Of a DNA stretch of 64,000 nucleotides, positions 54,267-63,887 are shown one piece after another (position 1 is the first letter of the stretch; each line of letters begins with the position of its first letter). This stretch comes from Chloroflexota bacterium (GTDB lineage Bacteria; Chloroflexota; Dehalococcoidia; SM23-28-2; RBG-16-64-32): positions 5,696-69,695 of the forward strand of contig JACZRQ010000002.1 in assembly GCA_022574655.1 (NCBI GenBank), read 5' to 3'. Position numbers and translations under genes: made by a program. The notes under the pieces are model-generated. The model made no database searches. It saw nothing but the letters and a program-made list of their open reading frames with translations, and was not told the DNA's origin.

Positions 54267-54293
54267 TCATCGCACGGAAACGGCGAAGCTGAA
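54267..54293 (-). promoter_or_regulatory. Sigma28/WhiG-like promoter motif upstream of the AAA ATPase
   Basis: TTCA-N15-TGCGATGA on the minus strand. Confidence 0.5.
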
Positions 54294-54303
54294 CCGTGCG
54301 CTC

Positions 54304-54723
54304 TCAGGCAGAGAGCAGCAGCTCTCGGGTTAGGTCGCCCCAACTGAAGAGCACCGCTGACAGCCGGCTACTCTCAGGGACCTGCGCACCGGTCCATTGG
54401 AGCAGTACTTCGTGAATCTGGGTCTCCGCCGCTCCCTCGCTATAGAAGTCCTGAGGGCGGAGAATGCCACAGTTGGAGCTGGCCTGCTGGACATTATCTT
54501 CATCCAGGACGGCAAGCGTCAGTGTGACGTAGTCCAGGCCGTACGGCCGGTGGGTCTGGCCCAACACCTCTCGACACCAGACAATGAGCGTGTTCGCCAT
54601 GTGGGTGCTGTCGCTCTCCAGTCGCCATGTGGTGTGATACAGGCCGACGCCGGCCTCTAAGGAACGGCGGACATGGTCGCGTAGAGACTGGCGCTGAAAC
54701 ACTCGACTGAGAGGGTTGGACAC
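54304..54723 (-). CDS. Hypothetical protein (139 aa)
   Basis: GGAGG RBS 5 nt before GTG 54723, with a sigma28-like motif upstream. Confidence 0.6.
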   Translation of the reverse strand: MSNPLSRVFQRQSLRDHVRRSLEAGVGLYHTTWRLESDSTHMANTLIVWCREVLGQTHRPYGLDYVTLTLAVLDEDNVQQASSNCGILRPQDFYSEGAAETQIHEVLLQWTGAQVPESSRLSAVLFSWGDLTRELLLSA

Positions 54724-54766
54724 AGAGGCCTCCGCGACGGCCCCATTGCAGCGGCCGCAAATGGAG

Positions 54767-54793
54767 TATCGACAGGCCAACGACAAAGGTTGA
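54767..54793 (-). promoter_or_regulatory. Sigma28/WhiG-like promoter motif
   Basis: TCAA-N15-GTCGATAC on the minus strand. Confidence 0.55.
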
Positions 54794-54802
54794 ACAGCGG
54801 GC

Positions 54803-55252
54803 TTATCGAGCATCTTCAGGGCGGAGGACCAGTGCTGCATAGATGGAGAAGGCGCCCAGGAACGCCAGGGCTAAGCCGGAAAGCTTGGGCCAAGGCCCAA
54901 CGCCACCGCTGGCGACGCCGGTCGCCGGCAGTGTGGCCGGCTCTCTGGGAGCTATCGCTACCGCCGGCGCAAGCTCTGAGACGTAGGTGGGGGTAGGCTG
55001 CGGCGCGGCCATGCTGGAAGAGGTCTCGCTCATGGGGCCAGCGGCGGTGGAAGAGGTCTCGCTCACGGGGCCGGCCGTGCTGGAAGAGGTCTCGCTTACG
55101 GGGCCGGAGGCGGTGGAGGAGGTCTCGCTCACGGGGCCGGAGGCGGCGCCGGAGGAGATGACCCCACTCCAGAGGAGGAGCAGGGCGAGCACGCCGCCGG
55201 CCACAATAGCGCGGCGTGCCCAGTGGCTGCATCTTCCAGCTATGGTACCCAT
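54803..55252 (-). CDS. Small secreted Ser/Thr-rich repeat protein with LPxTG-like sorting signal
   Basis: N-terminal signal peptide, four 11-aa repeats, LPATG, hydrophobic helix, and R-containing tail. Confidence 0.65.
   Translation of the reverse strand: MGTIAGRCSHWARRAIVAGGVLALLLLWSGVISSGAASGPVSETSSTASGPVSETSSSTAGPVSETSSTAAGPMSETSSSMAAPQPTPTYVSELAPAVAIAPREPATLPATGVASGGVGPWPKLSGLALAFLGAFSIYAALVLRPEDAR
55013..55144. repeat. 4 x 33-bp coding tandem repeat
   Basis: Unit G[CG]TGGA[AG]GAGGTCTCGCT[CT]A[CT]GGGGCC[AG]G..G., head to tail with no spacers. Encodes (S/A)GP(V/M)SETSS(T/S)(A/T/M). Confidence 0.95.
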
Positions 55253-55256
55253 GGCT

Positions 55257-55296
55257 AAACAAGAAAGCCGCCGGCTTCAGCGCGAAGGCGACGGCT
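55257..55296 (-). terminator. Intrinsic terminator-like hairpin between riboswitch and ATG
   Basis: AGCCGTCG-C-CTTC-gcgct-GAAG-C-CGGCGGCT followed by TTCTTGTTT, 4 nt before the start codon. Confidence 0.65.
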
Positions 55297-55318
55297 GAAC
55301 ATCCTCCGATTTTTCCTC

Positions 55319-55440
55319 TTCGGCAGCTCGGCCGTCGTTCCCGCTGTGGGAGTAGACCCGGAGCTTTGCGCCCGGACAAATTGCCGGGGGCCTTGCGACC
55401 AGGCGTGGTTTCCCACGCCGTGCCCTTTCGGAGGTCTATT
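55319..55440 (-). ncRNA. c-di-GMP-I (GEMM-I)-like riboswitch, atypical 5' half
   Basis: GCGCAAAGCTCCGGGTCTA...GACGGCCGAGCTGCCGAA matches the GEMM-I 3' signature. Upstream GNRA hairpins include GGCGTGG-GAAA-CCACGCC. Confidence 0.55.
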
Positions 55441-55654
55441 CTGTTGTCTTGCGGATTGGGCCAGGGGACGCCAGCCAGGCCCCGCCTCCTGAACGCGCGC
55501 CCCCTAGGCCCGTAGCCCGATCTCGCAGCCATTCATAAAGAGTGGCTGTAGATCGCTGGAGTAAGTTGGCACCCATAGCCTCAGTGCCCGTTTCGCGCGC
55601 CAGGCTCGCATCCTGCTCCCCAGCGTCGTTCACGAGATCTGGACATCCTTGCCC

Positions 55655-55681
55655 TGAACGGTGCGGTTCTTTAGCCGATAC
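55655..55681 (+). promoter_or_regulatory. Sigma28/WhiG-like promoter motif upstream of the vWA-FHA gene
   Basis: TGAA-N15-GCCGATAC. Confidence 0.62.
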
Positions 55682-55826
55682 TACTGTTGGACGCTTGATT
55701 CGACAGCCACCAACGATCGGTTCGCACCGATGCTGTCGGATCGCGCCGCATTGTGTCATAGCCATCATTGATATGTCAAGTGCAAGTTCCATGTCTATTC
55801 AGATCAGAACGGGAGAATCGCACGGT

Positions 55827-57848
55827 GTGTTACAGCGGAGCGAGCCTGTCGCGAAGCAGCGCCGTGGCTTAGCCCGCCGGGCGTGGCTGCTGTTCACCTT
55901 GCTAGCGTTACTGGTTGTACCTACCGTCGTCCGTGCGCAGGAAGCCTCCCTAACGGTGGAGGTGGCTAGCCTTACCACGGGTGAGGAGGCCGGCGTCCAA
56001 GCGGTGGTGGCGGTGCTGGGCGAGGACGGCCGTCCTGTGTCCGACCTGACCACGGAGGCGTTTGTGGTCCAGTTGGATGGCCAGGTGGTGCCGATCACCA
56101 CAGTGAGCCAGGGCGTGGACAGCACCCTGGGCATCGCCGTCGTTCTGGCGCTTGATGTGAGCCATAGCATGGAGGGCGCCCCGCTGGATCAGGCGAAGGC
56201 CGCCGCTCAAAGCTTCCTGGACGGGCTGGGGCCTCAGGACAGCGTCGCAGTCGTCGCCTTCGGCCATACGGTTGTGTCAGTGCTAGGCTTCACCCAAGAT
56301 CGGGCAGCAGTAGCGGCCGCTATCAATAACCTGACGATAGCCGCGGTTGCCGGCACCGCACTTTATGATGCAACCGTTGAGAGCCTAAGCCAGGCGGCCG
56401 GAGCTGAAACCAACCGTAGGGCGGTGGTCCTGCTCACCGACGGCCTGGACTATGGGAGCGATATTCCCCGGGCGGAGGCGCTGGCGACGAGCGAGCCGCT
56501 GGGCGTCCCTCTGTTCACCATCGGCCTTGGCAATGATATCGACGCTGGTTACCTGGAAGAGTTAGCTCAGATGAGCGGCGGCCAGTTTGATGTGACGCCA
56601 TCACCCGAAGGTCTAGCCCAACTCTATCAAGGAGTGGCCGAACTGCTGCGAGGTCAGTATGTCTTGAGCCTGGACCTCTCCGGCCTGTCGTTTGACGAAA
56701 CGGCGCCGGCCACGCTGCGCATTGACGTCACCATCGGAGAGCAGACGGGCAGCGGAGAGCGCGACGTCTGTCTGCAGCAGATATGCGTTGGTCTGAGTGA
56801 AGCGGAAGGGACGTTTACCGCCCAGGTGATTTCCGCGGAACCTGTCGTGTCCGTCATCTTCCTGCTCGATGGCGAGCAGGTGGCGGAGTTAAGCGAACCG
56901 CCGTACCTGTTCACCTATGATCCCATGTCCGTTGCGGACGGCGACCATACGGTAGAGGCGAAGGCCACCACTGCGGACGGTGCGATTGCCAGCGGAAGCA
57001 TACTGCTGAGCACCGGCGGCGTGGACCTGGTCAACAACCTAGACCGTTACCTGCCGGCCGGAGCAGTCGCGGTTGGCGCTGTCTTGATCGCGTTCCTGCT
57101 GCTCCGGTTGCTACGAAGCCGACGAAAGCGCGAGACACAGCAAGAGACCCCAATCGAGCCGCCGACGCGCGATGGGCCTGAGGAGGAACCGGCTCCTCAG
57201 GCACCAGAGCCTCCTCCCGCAGGCGAGGAGGCGATACAGCATGGGGCGCTGCGCCAGCTCTGGGACCAGACACCCACAACAGAGAAGCCGCCTCCTGCGG
57301 TGGTGGAAGAGCCGCTGGGCGCCCTGCGTGTCGTCAGCGGCCCGTTGGCCGGGCAAACGTTCACTGTCGGCGGCGCTCCCGTCAGCATTGGCTCAGGTCA
57401 TCGTTGCCTGATCCGGCTCCCGGTGGAGGAGGGTAGCGAAGAAGAGATCGCGCCTGAGCTGGCTCGGGTCTGGATCCGGGATAAGCAGCTAATGGTGCAT
57501 GAGCTCATGCGTCTGACCGTGACCGGGTCAGTGGGAGGAGGCTGGTCCATCTTGGCTCCCGGCGAGTCATTTAACATCGGCCCCTATTCGTTCAAGTTCG
57601 AGCTAGATGGCTATGAGGCTCCCGAAGAAACTAGCCCTGCTCCTATACCGAACGTCCTTCGGGAGGCCGGTGAAGCTCCCCCGGACAGCCCGCCGCCGCC
57701 ACAGGGCGCCCCTGCGCCTTCCGAGGGCGGTTCAGGAGAGCCCACAGAGGCTTCTCAGCCAAGCGCTTCCTCGTCAGATGACGGTGGAACAGGGCAAGAG
57801 ACACTCCCTGACAACCCCATGCGCGGGCGCATATGGCCGCGCGATTAA
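55827..57848 (+). CDS. Single-pass membrane protein: vWA domain, Ig-like domain, TM, degenerate FHA, Pro/Glu-rich tail
   Basis: Signal peptide, MIDAS DVSHS / GTALYDA / LLTDG, Ig-like VIFLLDGE..PPYLFTYD..GDHTVEAKA, TM AVAVGAVLIAFLLLRLL, FHA-like LRVVSGPLAGQTFTV..VSIGSG. Confidence 0.82.
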   Translation: MLQRSEPVAKQRRGLARRAWLLFTLLALLVVPTVVRAQEASLTVEVASLTTGEEAGVQAVVAVLGEDGRPVSDLTTEAFVVQLDGQVVPITTVSQGVDSTLGIAVVLALDVSHSMEGAPLDQAKAAAQSFLDGLGPQDSVAVVAFGHTVVSVLGFTQDRAAVAAAINNLTIAAVAGTALYDATVESLSQAAGAETNRRAVVLLTDGLDYGSDIPRAEALATSEPLGVPLFTIGLGNDIDAGYLEELAQMSGGQFDVTPSPEGLAQLYQGVAELLRGQYVLSLDLSGLSFDETAPATLRIDVTIGEQTGSGERDVCLQQICVGLSEAEGTFTAQVISAEPVVSVIFLLDGEQVAELSEPPYLFTYDPMSVADGDHTVEAKATTADGAIASGSILLSTGGVDLVNNLDRYLPAGAVAVGAVLIAFLLLRLLRSRRKRETQQETPIEPPTRDGPEEEPAPQAPEPPPAGEEAIQHGALRQLWDQTPTTEKPPPAVVEEPLGALRVVSGPLAGQTFTVGGAPVSIGSGHRCLIRLPVEEGSEEEIAPELARVWIRDKQLMVHELMRLTVTGSVGGGWSILAPGESFNIGPYSFKFELDGYEAPEETSPAPIPNVLREAGEAPPDSPPPPQGAPAPSEGGSGEPTEASQPSASSSDDGGTGQETLPDNPMRGRIWPRD

Positions 57849-57881
57849 CAGAAAATTCACGTTTCCTATAGCGTACCCCCT

Positions 57882-57908
57882 CTAGTCCGCCCCTATTTCT
57901 GCCGATCC
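57882..57908 (+). promoter_or_regulatory. Sigma28/WhiG-like promoter motif upstream of the ECF sigma
   Basis: CTAG-N15-GCCGATCC. Confidence 0.5.
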
Positions 57909-58002
57909 TAGTGATTAGGGAGTTCCCTCATGGTTGGAGGAAAACACCCTCACAATAAAGCGTAACGCTGGTCTGAACGATTCCGTTTAAGGATTGATAC
58001 GC

Positions 58003-58599
58003 ATGCTCAAGGTCATCTCCCCGCAAGATATCGATGAGCGTACCCTGGTGCAGCGGGCCACTGCACGGGACAAAGGCGCGTTTGGCGCGCTCTATGACCT
58101 TCATGTGGTTCGGGTCTATCGGCACCTGTACTATATGGTGGGTAACGCGGCAGAGGCGGAAGACCTCACGGCGCAGGCCTTCCTACAGGGATGGGAGGCG
58201 ATTCACCGCTACGAGATTCGTGGCGCGCCGTTTGTCTCCTGGTTGCTGCGCATCGCCCATAACTTAGGAGTGAGCTACCTGCGCTCCCGTAAGGAGAGCG
58301 CCCAGCTGCCGGAGACGCTGATAGACCATGGAAGCCAAAGAAATCCGGAAGAAGCGATTCACCAGCGGTTGGAGGGAGAACGTGTACGGGCGGCTATCAT
58401 ACGGCTACGAGACGAACAACGGCAGGTCATCATGCTCCGGTTTGTTGAGGACCTGGACTATCGAGAGGTGGCGGAGATCGTGGGTAAGAGTGTGGCGGCG
58501 GTACGCGTGATCCAACACCGGGCACTGAACACCCTGCGTAAGCAGATGCAGCGCGACGAGGCGGAGGCGGCAGCGGAGGCGGCAGCGGCGCATGGATGA
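58003..58599 (+). CDS. ECF (group 4) RNA polymerase sigma-70 factor
   Basis: AFGALYD, AEDLTAQAF, SWLLRIAHN (region 2) and LRDEQRQVIMLRFVEDLDYREVAEIVGKSVAAV (region 4). Confidence 0.93.
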   Translation: MLKVISPQDIDERTLVQRATARDKGAFGALYDLHVVRVYRHLYYMVGNAAEAEDLTAQAFLQGWEAIHRYEIRGAPFVSWLLRIAHNLGVSYLRSRKESAQLPETLIDHGSQRNPEEAIHQRLEGERVRAAIIRLRDEQRQVIMLRFVEDLDYREVAEIVGKSVAAVRVIQHRALNTLRKQMQRDEAEAAAEAAAAHG

Positions 58600-58855
58600 G
58601 ATGGAGCTCATGGAAGCACTGGCCGAGTGCCTGGAAGCCCTCCGGCGCAGCGAGGCGGATCTGGAAGCCTGTCTGGAACGGCACGCGGCTTACCGGGCGG
58701 AGTTGGAGCCGCTCCTGGAGGTCGCGCGACTCATCCCCCGCCTGCCGGGAGAGATCGCTCCCTCACCGCCCTTCCGCCAACGGGCCCGCCGTCTGATCCT
58801 AGACGACCAGAATGGCGAGAGCTCGGCCGAGTTGGGCTGGCAGCGGCCTTGCTAG
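58592..58855 (+). CDS. Putative minimal soluble anti-sigma factor
   Basis: Overlaps the sigma stop. LAECLEAL...LEACLERH..YRAELEPLLEVA...PSPPFRQRAR resembles N-terminal anti-sigma domains of Chloroflexi DUF5667-type proteins. No TM segment. Confidence 0.65.
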   Translation: MDEMELMEALAECLEALRRSEADLEACLERHAAYRAELEPLLEVARLIPRLPGEIAPSPPFRQRARRLILDDQNGESSAELGWQRPC

Positions 58856-58906
58856 GATAGGCGATCTCCCTTAAGGGAATTCCTCCCTCTAAATACGGGT
58901 TACCCC

Positions 58907-58933
58907 TTCAGACTTCCTGGTTTCTTCCGATGA
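58907..58933 (+). promoter_or_regulatory. Sigma28/WhiG-like promoter motif upstream of flp
   Basis: TTCA-N15-TCCGATGA. Confidence 0.55.
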
Positions 58934-59004
58934 TGGTAGAGGATAAAGGTCTGAAGAAACGCCCGGCGTCCGCGTCGGAGCTGCTAGGGAAGGAGGACTA
59001 AAGA

Positions 59005-59220
59005 ATGCGCTTTCTCAATGAAGCACTGCTGCGGGCGTTGGTCGGCTGGCACAACCTGGAAGCCAGCATGAAGGACGAAGAGGGCCAGACCCTGGCGGAG
59101 TACGGCCTGATCATGGCTGTCATTTCCATTGGCGTGGTCGTGGCTGCCGTAATCGCCTTCCGAGAGGCCATCATCGGCGCCTTTGATGGTGCCGTCGACT
59201 GCCTCGACGGATCCTGCTAA
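59005..59220 (+). CDS. flp: Flp family type IVb pilin
   Basis: EEG|QTLAEYGLI cleavage motif (E at +5, Y at +6), hydrophobic helix, GGAGG RBS. Confidence 0.92.
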   Translation: MRFLNEALLRALVGWHNLEASMKDEEGQTLAEYGLIMAVISIGVVVAAVIAFREAIIGAFDGAVDCLDGSC

Positions 59221-59241
59221 GTCAGTTAGCAGAACATGCTG

Positions 59242-59271
59242 GGAAGGGCCTCGACCAGTCGAGGCCCTTCC
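59242..59271 (+). terminator. 13-bp perfect hairpin after flp (terminator or mRNA stabiliser)
   Basis: GGAAGGGCCTCGA-CCAG-TCGAGGCCCTTCC. No U-tract. Confidence 0.65.
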
Positions 59272-59344
59272 TGCGTATCCGGCGGGCCCAGCACCTGGCG
59301 GGCGGCTTGGCCGCAATCGCGGCGCTGTTCATGAGAGCCAGGCG

Positions 59345-59371
59345 TAAAGCTTGGCTGGAGCCTACCGATAC
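59345..59371 (+). promoter_or_regulatory. Sigma28/WhiG-like promoter motif upstream of cpaB
   Basis: TAAA-N15-ACCGATAC, close to the sigma28 consensus TAAA-N15-GCCGATAA. Confidence 0.68.
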
Positions 59372-59451: not shown

Positions 59452-60288
59452 ATGGCACGAGCAATGACAGGCGCAGCAGTAGGCCGGGTGAACCGACGGT
59501 TCTTGTTCCTGGCTCTTATCTTAGCCGTACTGAGCGCGGTCTTGGTATACGCTGGAGTGTCGAAGTCTGGCGGAGGCACTGCTACCCAGACCGACATCCA
59601 GGTGGTGTACGCTAGACAGTCAATCCCGGCCGGCACGTTGCTTACCGCTGAAATGCTGGGCGTCCGTGAGGCCGCAGAAAATTCTGTAGGCATTGGGTTC
59701 TTCACCAGCATTCAGGACACAGTTGGCAAGCTGGTCCAGTTCCCTATCGCGGCAAACGCCTCGGTGCTGAACTCCAGTCTGGCCGGTACCACCAGCGTGC
59801 CCCTCAGCGATAGCCTTAGTTACGTCGTAGAGGAGAACAAGCGTGGCATGGCCATTGGTATTGATCTAGTGGTTGGCGCCGGCGGGTTGGTGCTCCCTGG
59901 CGATCATGTGGACATCTTCTTTGTGCCTGACAACGCGGCGGACGTGCTGACCGACCATGTTGGCGCCATGCTGATAGCGGAGAACATAGAAGTGTTGGCC
60001 GTGCAGCAGGTGATTGTAAACATCGCCCCCACGGCGCCCGGACTGCAAGACGAGGACGAAGGCGCGGCAACAGAGGAGGGCGACGGGAGGGTTCCCGGTG
60101 GTGCGGTCCCTGAGCCAATCCCGCAGGCAGCCACCGTTACACTGCTGCTCACGCCCGCGCAGGCGCAACAGATCTTCTGTGCGGAGATGAGTGGCGTGAT
60201 CCGGCTTGCCGTGCGGGCCTTCCAGGATAACTCTCCAACCGGGATTGCGCCGTCCGTGTGCATTCTCCGAGCGGACGACGAGCTCTAG
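59452..60288 (+). CDS. cpaB: Flp pilus assembly protein CpaB/RcpC
   Basis: N-terminal TM, SAF domain (VVYARQSIPAGTLLTAEML), GGLVLPGDHVDI, ENIEVLAV, VTLLLTPAQA. Confidence 0.9.
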   Translation: MARAMTGAAVGRVNRRFLFLALILAVLSAVLVYAGVSKSGGGTATQTDIQVVYARQSIPAGTLLTAEMLGVREAAENSVGIGFFTSIQDTVGKLVQFPIAANASVLNSSLAGTTSVPLSDSLSYVVEENKRGMAIGIDLVVGAGGLVLPGDHVDIFFVPDNAADVLTDHVGAMLIAENIEVLAVQQVIVNIAPTAPGLQDEDEGAATEEGDGRVPGGAVPEPIPQAATVTLLLTPAQAQQIFCAEMSGVIRLAVRAFQDNSPTGIAPSVCILRADDEL

Positions 60289-60330
60289 CCGTAGCCGGAA
60301 TAATGTGGAACTGCGGAGAGGCAGGACAGC

Positions 60331-61524
60331 GTGGCCCGAAACCCTGAAGTTGTCATCATTGACCCGGACTTAGACGTTCGGGCTGAACTCAAGCGCACGC
60401 TTGAGGTGGGTACGTTTACCGTGACGGGTGTGGCTGACTATGGCATTGAGGCGGTCACCGTTGCGCAAGAACGATCGCCGGATGTCTTCCTGGTGAGCAT
60501 GGAAGAGCCGGTTGCGCGCGCGCTCCAGACGATTGAAATGCTCGGGTCGGCTAATTCCACCGCGGCCATCGTCGTCTACTCCTCCCTCTCCGACGCTGCG
60601 TCCGTGCGGCGCGCGATGGTGGCGGGCGCGCGGGACTACCTGATGAAACCGATCAAGCCGGAGGACGTCTCGCGCGCTGTCTTCGGCATTTTGGAGCAAG
60701 AAGAGCGGAAGCGGATACACGTAGGTAGTGATGTCAGCGAGCCTGTAGCCCGTGGCACGACGGTGACGATCTTCGGCGCCAAGGGCGGCATTGGCAAGAC
60801 GACCATCGCGACGAACCTGGCGACGGCTCTGGTCCGCACCACCGGCGCCAACGTAGTGCTGGTGGACATGGACACGCGCTTCGGGGACGTTGCCATCATG
60901 ATGGACATTGCAGTCGAAACCAGCATTGCTGATCTGGGGAGGCGCGTTGAAGAGTTGGACCGGGAGTCCATTAAGGACTACCTGGTGCGTCACCACACGG
61001 GAGTCACGATCCTGCCGGCGCCCCTCCACCCGACAGAGTGGCGCAGCGTGACGCCGCAGCAAATAGAGAGAATCATCGATCTGCTGGCGCAGGGCCACGA
61101 CTACATCATCATCGATACGCCCGGCACCTTCAACGAACTCATTGCTACCACACTGGAGCTGGCCAACATGATCCTGCTGGTCACCAGCATGGACATCGCC
61201 AGCATTAAGGACACGGCGCTGGCGCTGGAGATGCTCCGCGCCGCTCAGGTATCAGAGGATAAAGTCAAGCTGACGATCAACCATTCCACATCGTCCAACA
61301 GTCTGCGCGAGGAAGATGTGGAGCGTGTACTGGAGTACACCGTGACGTGGCGCATTCCTCATGATTACAACGTCGCCAACTCCAACCAGTTGGGTATTCC
61401 TATTGTCATTGCGAAGCCATACGCGCGCGTCGCACGCGCCGTCACAGATATCGCCTACGCGCTTTCCGGCGCGCCTAGAGAGCGCAAGGGCTTCCTGGAA
61501 CGGTTTCTTGGGCGCGCCGGCTAG
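60331..61524 (+). CDS. cpaE: CpaE/TadZ: receiver-like domain plus MinD/ParA ATPase
   Basis: GARDYLMKP, GAKGGIGKTT, LVDMD and IIDTP motifs. Confidence 0.9.
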   Translation: MARNPEVVIIDPDLDVRAELKRTLEVGTFTVTGVADYGIEAVTVAQERSPDVFLVSMEEPVARALQTIEMLGSANSTAAIVVYSSLSDAASVRRAMVAGARDYLMKPIKPEDVSRAVFGILEQEERKRIHVGSDVSEPVARGTTVTIFGAKGGIGKTTIATNLATALVRTTGANVVLVDMDTRFGDVAIMMDIAVETSIADLGRRVEELDRESIKDYLVRHHTGVTILPAPLHPTEWRSVTPQQIERIIDLLAQGHDYIIIDTPGTFNELIATTLELANMILLVTSMDIASIKDTALALEMLRAAQVSEDKVKLTINHSTSSNSLREEDVERVLEYTVTWRIPHDYNVANSNQLGIPIVIAKPYARVARAVTDIAYALSGAPRERKGFLERFLGRAG

Positions 61525-61553
61525 CGGGTGAGCGGGAGAGGAGAGCATCGCTG

Positions 61554-62912
<1,359 letters not shown>

Positions 62913-62915
62913 CTG

Positions 62916-63887
62916 ATGGACCTACTAGCATTAGGCGCATCCATATCAATCTTGGTGACGGTTCTCCTGTTCGCCATCGCTCTCTATTCCGGCGCCGCTA
63001 TAAGCGCTCAGGTGCGGGGCCGGCTGGAAGAGGTGCTGACTGAGTCCACCTCTGTGGTGGAAGGCAGCTCAGGCACGCCGCTACGTCAAACTCCTTCCGT
63101 CATGGGGCTCTATAAGTTCGTTATCTCCGGCGGTTGGTTAGAGAGCATGGCGGAGGGTCTACAGCGGGCGGACAGCCGCCTGCAACCGGTTGATTTTATT
63201 ACTATCCGCGTTGCCCTGGCCGGCCTGGGTTTTGCTACTCCCTTCCTGTTCCTTGGTGGCCCTCTGGGAGTAATGTTGGGCTTCGTCGTCGCCCTGGTGG
63301 GTTTTCAAGCGCCACAGGTCTGGATGACCAAGCGCCATGAAGGGCGTAGCAAGAAGCTGGAAGAGCAGTTGCCAGAGGCGCTCACCCTCATCGCCAACTC
63401 GCTCAAGGCAGGGTTTGGGCTGCTGCAAAGCCTGAATCTGGCCGCTGAGCAGTTGGAACATCCTATTGCCACGGAGCTGGGCCAGACCATACATGAGATG
63501 AACGTCGGCTCCAGTGCGGACGAGGCGCTCCAGGCTATGAGTGAGCGAGTGGAGAACTACGATCTGGACTTAGTGGTGACGGCGATCTTGGTTCAGCGGT
63601 CAGTGGGCGGGAACTTGGCCGAGATCTTGGAGACCGTGGCCGGGATGATGCGCGAGCGAGTGCGAATTCGCGCCGAGATCGTCACCTTGACCGCACAGCA
63701 GACCCTAACAGGTGTCGTCATCGGCCTGCTGCCGATCGGAGTGGGCCTCATGTTCCTGGTCGTCAGCCCGTCGTATATCTCCATACTCTTTAGTGAAACG
63801 ATAGGGAAAGTGATGTTGGGGGTTGCGGTGATCATGGAGACTGTTGGGATTTTGATTATTCGCCGGATCCTTGCTATTGAGGTGTAA
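62916..63887 (+). CDS. tadB: TadB (type II secretion F-family) protein
   Basis: QLPEALTLIANSLKAG and ILVQRSVGGNLAEILE motifs. Confidence 0.93.
   Translation: MDLLALGASISILVTVLLFAIALYSGAAISAQVRGRLEEVLTESTSVVEGSSGTPLRQTPSVMGLYKFVISGGWLESMAEGLQRADSRLQPVDFITIRVALAGLGFATPFLFLGGPLGVMLGFVVALVGFQAPQVWMTKRHEGRSKKLEEQLPEALTLIANSLKAGFGLLQSLNLAAEQLEHPIATELGQTIHEMNVGSSADEALQAMSERVENYDLDLVVTAILVQRSVGGNLAEILETVAGMMRERVRIRAEIVTLTAQQTLTGVVIGLLPIGVGLMFLVVSPSYISILFSETIGKVMLGVAVIMETVGILIIRRILAIEV

Follow-up and report, generated by a model that had tools for sequence, protein, structure and literature searches.

Six short two-block sequence elements lie ahead of the genes of a Tad/Flp pilus (tad) locus, and of its divergent neighbors, in the 64,000-nt stretch of DNA analyzed here (hereafter, the window). 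The window is part of contig C98 (JACZRQ010000002.1) of a 2.65-Mb metagenome-assembled genome (MAG) from Chloroflexota, class Dehalococcoidia, that is 77% complete. The elements recur ahead of orthologous genes in related loci, and from this conservation we infer that all six act as true promoters and belong to a single class, similar to that of the sigma28/WhiG family. We consider it probable that, in its native lineages, this class is read by a pair of WhiG-type sigma factors, with a locally encoded extracytoplasmic function (ECF) sigma factor as a putative downstream step of a cascade.

The first-pass annotation of this DNA had listed six sigma28/WhiG-type motifs, each facing a gene and all with exactly 15-nt spacing. 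All six sites were found (Table 1), and all are intergenic and directed at a gene. The spacing held as read for five of them, but the site beginning at 54793 is TCAA-N16-GTCGATAC (or CAAC-N15). When the sites are placed in the common register T-n-n-A-G...CCGAT, the spacer is 15 nt at four of six and 16 nt at the other two (ECF and 139-aa gene). The 54793 site seemed intragenic if the longest open reading frame (ORF; ATG at 54840) was assumed; it is intergenic because the conserved start is the GTG at 54723, which is common to the orthologous locus L172 and agrees with the public gene call of 139 aa. Compared with the sigma28/WhiG consensus TAAA-N15-GCCGATAA (PMC8325347), whose −10 has a CGA core, CGAT was present at all six sites, CCGAT at four, and GCCGAT at two. 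The cpaB site matched this consensus best, with a −35 of TAAAG, whereas the −35 blocks of the ECF (TCTAG), flp and AAA (TTCAG), and vWA (TGAAC) sites fit T-n-n-A-(G) only. An exact TAAAG-N15-CCGATA in proper position was found at the cpaB site and nowhere else in this genome.

Table 1. Two-block sites, genes, and other elements of the tad locus and its neighbors (window coordinates)
Feature	Coordinates	Strand	Sequence or domains	Remarks
AAA ATPase site (site 1)	54267..54293	-	TTCA-N15-TGCGATGA; in register TTCAG-N15-GCGATGA	Weak variant
139-aa gene site (site 2)	54766..54793	-	TCAA-N16-GTCGATAC; in register TCAAC-N16-TCGATAC	
vWA site (site 3)	55655..55681	+	TGAA-N15-GCCGATAC; in register (CC)TGAAC-N15-CCGATAC(T)	
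ECF site (site 4)	57881..57908	+	CTAG-N15-GCCGATCC (from 57882); in register (CC)TCTAG-N16-CCGATCC(T)	
flp site (site 5)	58907..58933	+	TTCA-N15-TCCGATGA; in register (CC)TTCAG-N15-CCGATGA	
cpaB site (site 6)	59345..59371	+	TAAA-N15-ACCGATAC; in register (G)TAAAG-N15-CCGATAC	
AAA ATPase gene, 453 aa	52851..54212	-	Pfam AAA_16, under curated cut-off	Target of site 1
139-aa protein gene	54304..54723	-		GTG start; function unknown; target of site 2
Repeat-rich secreted protein gene	54803-55252	-		
c-di-GMP-I riboswitch	55319-55395	-	RF01051	39.1 bits (gathering score, 35); E = 4e-5
Sigma70-type promoter	about 55750-55779	-	TTGACA-N18-CACAAT	Upstream of riboswitch
vWA-domain membrane protein gene, 685 aa	55791..57848	+	Pfam VWA and Big_7	Public gene call; target of site 3
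BldN-like ECF sigma gene	58003-58599	+	Sigma70_r2 and r4	Target of site 4
Putative anti-sigma gene, 87 aa	58592-58855	+		Overlaps ECF gene; unit with ECF, 58003..58855
Palindromes at flp promoter	58868-58877, 58897-58906		CCCTTAAGGG(AAT) and GGGTTACCCC	Abut −35
Hairpin in flp 5' leader	about 58961-58981		GCCCGGCG..CGCCGGAGC	GC-rich
Flp pilin gene	59005..59220	+	Pfam Flp_Fap, under curated cut-off	Target of site 5
Stem-loop 3' of flp	about 59242-59272		GGGAAGGGCCTCGAC..GTCGAGGCCCTTCC	Ahead of cpaB promoter
cpaB-cpaE(receiver-fused)-cpaF-tadB operon	59452..63887	+	Pfam RcpC, Response_reg and ParA-like, T2SSE	Target of site 6

A loose pattern (any 4-mer, N15, nnCGATnn) might find six matches by chance in a CGAT-rich region, and CGAT, the sole invariant letters of the six sites, occurs 48 times within 5.1 kb when both strands are counted. 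The classical consensus was likewise not enriched genome-wide at spacing 15: over the 1,904 upstream regions of the MAG, TAAA-N15-GCCGATAA-like matches were in no excess at that spacing over spacings 8-25, nor were sense matches above antisense ones. Sites with at most two mismatches numbered 67 in the genome and were mainly intragenic. From this genome alone the pattern is weak and chance could account for the six sites. The single-genome enrichment statistic was uninformative, and orthologous loci were used instead.

Six genomes (L008-L013) have the common gene order AAA(-)/vWA/ECF/(anti-sigma, flp)/cpaB-cpaE-cpaF-tadBC, and scanning metagenomes with aligned ECF proteins yielded about 38 further loci, giving about 45 orthologous loci in all. 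A two-block element recurred at each gene class, (C)TnnAG-N15/16-(G)CCGAT(A/C)CT with free spacer letters, ahead of the cpaB, ECF, vWA, flp, AAA, and 139-aa genes. Class consensus sequences were CGTAAAGC..CCGATACCTA for cpaB (15 sites), CCTnnAG-N15/16-CTGCCGATCCT for ECF (40 sites), CCTcAAgG..GCCGATACT for vWA (11 sites), CCTTCAGA..CCGAnnAT for flp (12 sites), and cTcCAG..CCGATAcT for AAA (10 sites). Of 19 cpaB loci, 10 had a perfect GTAAAG-N15-CCGATAC (12/12) upstream of the gene (background P = 0.003). Ahead of the ECF gene, about 35 of the 42 loci compared had CTnnAG-N15/16-GCCGATCCT, in agreement with the earlier proposal that the local ECF falls under the same promoter class as the pilus genes. 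The flp site aligned in the window locus, L010, L170, L172, L174, and L177 (x3). The register of the AAA site, TTCAG-N15-GCGATnn in the closest relatives of the window, was kept in L010 and L177 at 49-59 nt from the start codon; L008, L009, L013, L179, and L180 have nnCAG-N15-CCGATACT instead. The 139-aa gene is present in only one other locus, L172, where its site is kept as CCAAC-N15-CCGATACTCC.

The sites were then ranked within the complete MAG sequence (5.3 million positions) by a position weight matrix (PWM) from whose training the window sites had been left out. It ranked the cpaB site first (21.3 bits), ECF third (19.9 bits), vWA fifth (18.6 bits), flp 12th (17.3 bits), and the 139-aa site 25th (16.1 bits, from a matrix containing no site of the 139-aa class). 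The AAA site, a weak variant with GCGAT, scored only 9.1 bits. About eight intergenic matches in the MAG reached 15.4 bits, and five of them were at the window locus. These ranks together with the conservation therefore indicate that the sites are real, belong to one class, and are nearly confined to the locus in this genome. Because five sites stand in the top 25 of a window-excluded scan and sites are kept in orthologous loci despite diverged spacers, a chance origin is already refuted for all but the AAA site, and as an account of the whole set we regard it as extremely unlikely. Beyond the locus, the sole well-placed site in the MAG (G000, C20:10043, minus strand), CCTAAACC-N15-CCGATACTTA with 16.2 bits, lies 103 nt ahead of a gene for a small sigma-like protein (region 2/region 4), and it may be due to chance.

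Several features point to promoters. In the approximately 45 loci, the blocks are asymmetric, stand at a set distance from each other, and are always directed at a gene, whose start lies 30-200 nt away. Away from the tad locus, four genes of G086 and G092 have GCCGATACT with the ATG 6-7 nt downstream; they look like genes with leaderless transcripts and, judged by this arrangement, would have a sigma28-like promoter geometry. One of the four encodes a 138-aa protein, and the arrangement is kept in four of five orthologues. Its position relative to the box suggests that this protein belongs to the regulon and is made from a leaderless transcript. Proteins of this type (138-141 aa, MDDFRxQL...) are encoded in L273, L276, and L279-L282 (G081, G082, G086, G092, and G093) and have no Pfam matches. 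The 138-aa protein was considered as a means of telling an ECF reader from a WhiG-type one and was set aside: it is confined to genomes with both ECF and WhiG and so does not discriminate between them. The boxes could instead be binding sites of a transcription factor (e.g., the receiver-fused CpaE, a winged helix-turn-helix [wHTH] protein, or an FHA-linked pathway), and conserved extra palindromes, CCCTTAAGGG and GGGTTACCCC, do adjoin the flp site. We find this very unlikely given two asymmetric blocks 15-16 nt apart in constant orientation to the gene, a downstream block close to the sigma28 −10, and an ATG 6-7 nt past that block at several unlinked genes.

The proposed sigma28/WhiG-like character of the class was supported by the shared GCCGAT −10 and by the full TAAAG −35 at cpaB, where TAAAG-N14-nCCGATAC can be set against TAAA-N15-GCCGATAA of sigma28. 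At many orthologous ECF promoters, CTCAA-N16-GCCGA fits the actinobacterial WhiG1/2 consensus XT(C/A)AX-N16-GCCGA (PMC13595943). We therefore looked at the distribution of candidate sigma factors. FliA/WhiG-family genes were found, two in each genome, in 8/8 other genomes with the ECF-linked locus (L008-L013 and two more); with the cut-off at 189.6 bits, one member of the pair scored 186-202 and the other 176-183. In the L008-L013 genomes, one of the two lies slightly above the cut-off and the other slightly below it, the paired proteins have regions 2, 3, and 4, and their top NCBIfam matches are FliA_WhiG and WhiG. Their closest solved structure is 6pfv/6pfj (158 bits), followed by E. coli FliA; we take 6pfv/6pfj to be Streptomyces WhiG, the match table giving just "RNA polymerase sigma factor". 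The flagellar export protein FlhA was found neither in the six tested genomes (L008-L013) nor in this MAG. A FliA/WhiG-family gene was also present in G065 and G087. Of 16 genomes from other Dehalococcoidia families, eight had one. The motif was not found upstream of the whiG-like genes themselves. The genes downstream of them encode a 181-aa protein whose N-terminus is rich in Cys and a 332-aa protein; an RsiG motif, E(X)3S(X)2R(X)3Q(X)3D, was not obvious by eye in these two genes, and no dedicated RsiG search was made.

The class would then represent the form that the sigma28/WhiG promoter takes in Dehalococcoidia, read in native lineages by one or both of the paired, nonflagellar FliA/WhiG-family sigmas encoded elsewhere, and the local ECF would be a downstream step of a sigma cascade. 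Alternatively, the motif may be read by the local BldN-like ECF itself, as a self-contained, autoregulated module with its 87-aa anti-sigma and six units that can pass from one genome to another; in that case, WhiG-type sigmas would be found alongside it only as a lineage effect. The motif is most consistently kept ahead of the ECF gene itself, and in the MAG, which has no WhiG-type sigma, it is confined to the locus. The geometry GTAAAG-N16-CGAT also lies inside the ECF range. The M. tuberculosis SigD promoter has been reported as GTAACG-N16-17-CGAT. About half of ECFs autoregulate (PMC7776599). Several properties of the sites do not suit such a reader. The −35 (CCTnnAG) lacks the AAC core usual for ECFs and varies widely between units, whereas ECFs require near-consensus promoters (PMC7776599), and the −10 is long and sigma28-like (GCCGATnCT; GCCGATCCT at ECF) rather than short and of the CGT type. 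For tad-linked paralogous ECFs in the family, the promoters are of the sigma70 type and the CCGAT motif is absent.

Genome G065, from the same class and another family (91% complete), bears on the choice between these readers. It encodes a WhiG-type pair (196 and 173 bits), and its whole assembly holds no orthologue of the ECF, the best match having 36-37% identity. Scanning 1.9 Mb of it with the PWM and naming the downstream genes by Pfam gave top intergenic matches ahead of an HD_5 protein with the HHExxDGxG(V)P motif of the HD-GYP type (21.8 bits) and of a gene orthologous to that of the AAA ATPase (38% identity) and not linked to tad genes there (21.7 bits). Further matches lay ahead of a DUF11 surface protein (19.1 bits), a small wHTH protein adjoining the tad locus (18.2 bits), a second HD_5 protein, whose gene starts 9 nt from the box (16.7 bits), flp (14.7 bits; CCTAAAGTT-N15-CCGACTATCA, identical to L014), and cpaB (13.8 bits). 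We estimated P ~4e-4 for a match of at least 18 bits at the position of the AAA site. The motif therefore stays tied to the AAA and tad genes without the ECF. The remaining G065 targets recall, by analogy, the Rubrobacter WhiG regulon with its pili and cyclic di-GMP (c-di-GMP) enzymes.

Locus L014 (vWA-flp-tadE-cpaB), with an ECF neither in the canonical position nor in the genome, also speaks against the ECF as reader, having TAAAGTT-N..-CCGACTAT ahead of flp (13.3 bits). As a stand-alone example of a motif-bearing locus without the ECF it was set aside, its sites being weak by PWM (at most about 13 bits). The locus has the two-block motif ahead of its ECF gene that an autoregulated ECF would show, while an AAC/-CGT promoter is absent and the motif is not limited to genomes with the ECF, as G065 illustrates. 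Taken together, we hold the ECF to be an unlikely reader of the class. Paralogous tad-linked loci were rejected as a guide to its specificity: they combine promoters of the sigma70 type with a structured leader at flp and so carry no information on the specificity of the window ECF. Paralogous ECF, anti-sigma, flp, and tadE genes occur in L089, L090, L093, L096, L098, L100, L101, L106, L107, and L109, in genomes without WhiG. The promoter of these ECFs (45-52% identity) is TTGAAG-N17-TGTAACAT, and a leader with CGGCACC..GGTGCCG and GCCAAGG..CCTTGGC is kept upstream of flp.

A number of observations weigh against a reading by the WhiG-type pair. The first-pass annotation had proposed that a FliA/WhiG sigma encoded elsewhere drives the pilus genes here. 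A search of the 77%-complete MAG by hidden Markov model (HMM) profiles and tblastn found no group-3 sigma, so this claim is unproven for this organism; the sigma inventory consisted of one RpoD-like protein and about seven ECFs. FliA/WhiG-family genes were found in none of 64 genomes of the family and order of the MAG, including a closed syntenic relative, and in other assemblies of the same population (contigs of at most 18 kb) no sigma gene was seen outside the locus. Mis-binning of the contig was rejected, as described below. The near-confinement of the motif to the locus, with six sites intact, would fit a reader that moved along with it, namely the ECF. Most of the −35 boxes (TCTAG, TTCAG, and TGAAC) match TAAA poorly. 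Finally, the enrichment in G065 was modest (11 intergenic matches of at least 16 bits versus 4 in a reversed-sequence control), and the G065 sigmas share just 31-39% identity with their G083 and G084 counterparts.

The genome context suggests how the locus came to reside in this lineage. From 3.4 to 47.3 kb, the window is collinear with G019, a closed genome from the family of the MAG, at 57-91% amino-acid identity. Mis-binning of C98 was ruled out by this syntenic stretch of about 44 kb and by an ordinary tetranucleotide profile. Collinearity ends at about 47.3 kb, and the tad/ECF locus and its neighbors lie in a nonsyntenic stretch of at least 22 kb. The flanks of the locus were common to no other locus compared, and relatives in the family have no orthologue of the window ECF, their best matches being the paralogues with 45-52% identity. 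Because of this synteny break, the unshared flanks, and the lack of an ECF orthologue in the family, the locus looks horizontally acquired, into a lineage without the presumed sigma and with all six promoters intact. For the MAG, either a whiG-type gene came along and would sit in the unassembled 23%, or the acquisition was recent and the promoters would be orphaned, or another factor, the co-resident ECF, would read them. An extension of the last option is a portable module of sigma plus promoters, in which a BldN-like ECF (group 4) would read WhiG/sigma28 (group 3) promoters, with the WhiG-type sigma acting in native hosts and the ECF after transfer; this we consider rather improbable.

Among known systems, the closest, by analogy, is that of Rubrobacter. 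In R. radiotolerans and R. xylanophilus, the regulon of WhiG, a sigma28-family factor, includes the type IV pili together with enzymes of c-di-GMP metabolism (PMC8325347), and the WhiG regulon has since been extended across Actinomycetota (PMC13595943). The first-pass annotation had cited the sigma28 consensus and WhiG/RsiG control of type IV pili in Rubrobacter correctly (PMC8325347). The Dehalococcoidia system resembles that of Rubrobacter in that FliA/WhiG-family sigmas occur in nonflagellar organisms (here, relatives of the MAG, with FlhA absent in the six tested), in having several promoters akin to the TAAA/GCCGATAA type within a pilus gene cluster, and in having promoters ahead of c-di-GMP turnover genes, represented here by the two HD_5/HD-GYP-type genes of G065. 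The actinobacterial XT(C/A)AX-N16-GCCGA fits many of its sites. It differs in phylum (Chloroflexota, Dehalococcoidia, rather than Actinomycetota), in pilus type (Tad/Flp, type IVc, rather than type IVa), in having two paralogous sigmas per genome, a −35 of T-n-n-A-G rather than T(C/A)A, and an ECF sigma/anti-sigma pair among its targets, and in that the sigma itself was not found in the genome studied.

Flagellar sigma28 (FliA/SigD) promoters, TAAA-N15-GCCGATAA, share with this class the CCGAT core with an invariant CGA, the full TAAAG at cpaB, the 15-16 nt spacing, and a transcription start predicted ~7 nt after the −10 block. Unlike in flagellar systems, no FlhA was found in the MAG or the six tested relatives, the targets are pili, surface proteins, and signaling genes, and most −35 boxes depart from TAAA. 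Autoregulated ECF modules (BldN/RsbN-like) resemble the locus in their ECF and overlapping small anti-sigma-like gene, the two-block promoter upstream, and the adjacent presumed targets. In contrast to their promoters, such as GGAAC-N16-CGT, the sites here have no AAC core and a long sigma28-like −10, and the same promoter class occurs in the ECF-less genome G065.

In the window, the class promoters would define six transcription units: the AAA ATPase gene; the 139-aa gene; the vWA gene; ECF plus anti-sigma; flp; and cpaB-cpaE-cpaF-tadBC. The earlier assignment of two unannotated neighbors, the AAA ATPase and the 139-aa gene, to the pilus regulon is consistent with the class sites that both carry. 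A seventh unit, encoding the repeat-rich secreted surface protein, is the only one of the locus without a CCGAT-type promoter; it would instead use a sigma70-type promoter together with a c-di-GMP-I riboswitch in its leader. The riboswitch scored above its gathering threshold (Table 1), and both it and the promoter upstream are kept in L172 (TTGACA-N17-CAGAAT).

Additional elements surround the flp and ECF promoters. The two palindromes that abut the flp −35 and the hairpin in the flp leader (Table 1) are common to L010, L172, L174, and L177. In L008, L009, L011, and L013, a similar element, CCCnTAAGGG, follows the ECF promoter. Such elements might be bound by regulators or might form a second promoter. 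The strong stem-loop directly 3' of flp, which also surfaced as a spurious hairpin match in a separate scan, is compatible with an abundant pilin transcript that is terminated on its own.

The Tad/Flp set of the locus comprises Flp (under the curated cut-off), CpaB/RcpC, CpaE/TadZ, the CpaF/TadA ATPase, and TadB/TadC by Pfam. The T2SSF match and the gene calls for tadB/tadC come from the public annotation, and tadC extends past the window. The relatives of the window CpaF are from Dehalococcoidia. The product of 58003-58599 is a true ECF; its top NCBIfam match is TIGR02952 (BldN family; 141 bits, under its cut-off) and its top PDB match is 6dxo. The AAA ATPase gene is syntenic in L008-L013 and L172-L197, and the 139-aa protein had no Pfam or NCBIfam matches. 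Three CpaB-type genes are present in the MAG (contigs C98, C83, and C42), so there are probably three Tad loci, and CCGAT-type promoters occur only at the window copy (C98). In other assemblies of the same population (L384-L386, with identical TadB), a large minus-strand ORF follows tadC and DUF192. Its length differs among these assemblies (763, 1123, or >1494 aa), and it may encode a surface protein with variable repeat length.

No published account of such a promoter system in Dehalococcoidia was found in the literature searched. If the proposed reading by WhiG-type sigmas is true, the link between WhiG and pili, so far one of Actinomycetota and type IVa pili, would also hold for Tad pili and for nonflagellated Dehalococcoidia (Chloroflexota). 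The analysis offers a promoter model, six predicted transcription units, and a candidate regulon (pili, AAA ATPase, surface proteins, ECF cascade, and HD-GYP-type enzymes) for organisms that can hardly be cultivated, and it tentatively places two proteins of unknown function in the pilus regulon. With promoters intact, the sigma missing, and the locus in a nonsyntenic stretch, the MAG may serve as a natural experiment on the fate of alternative-sigma promoters after horizontal transfer.

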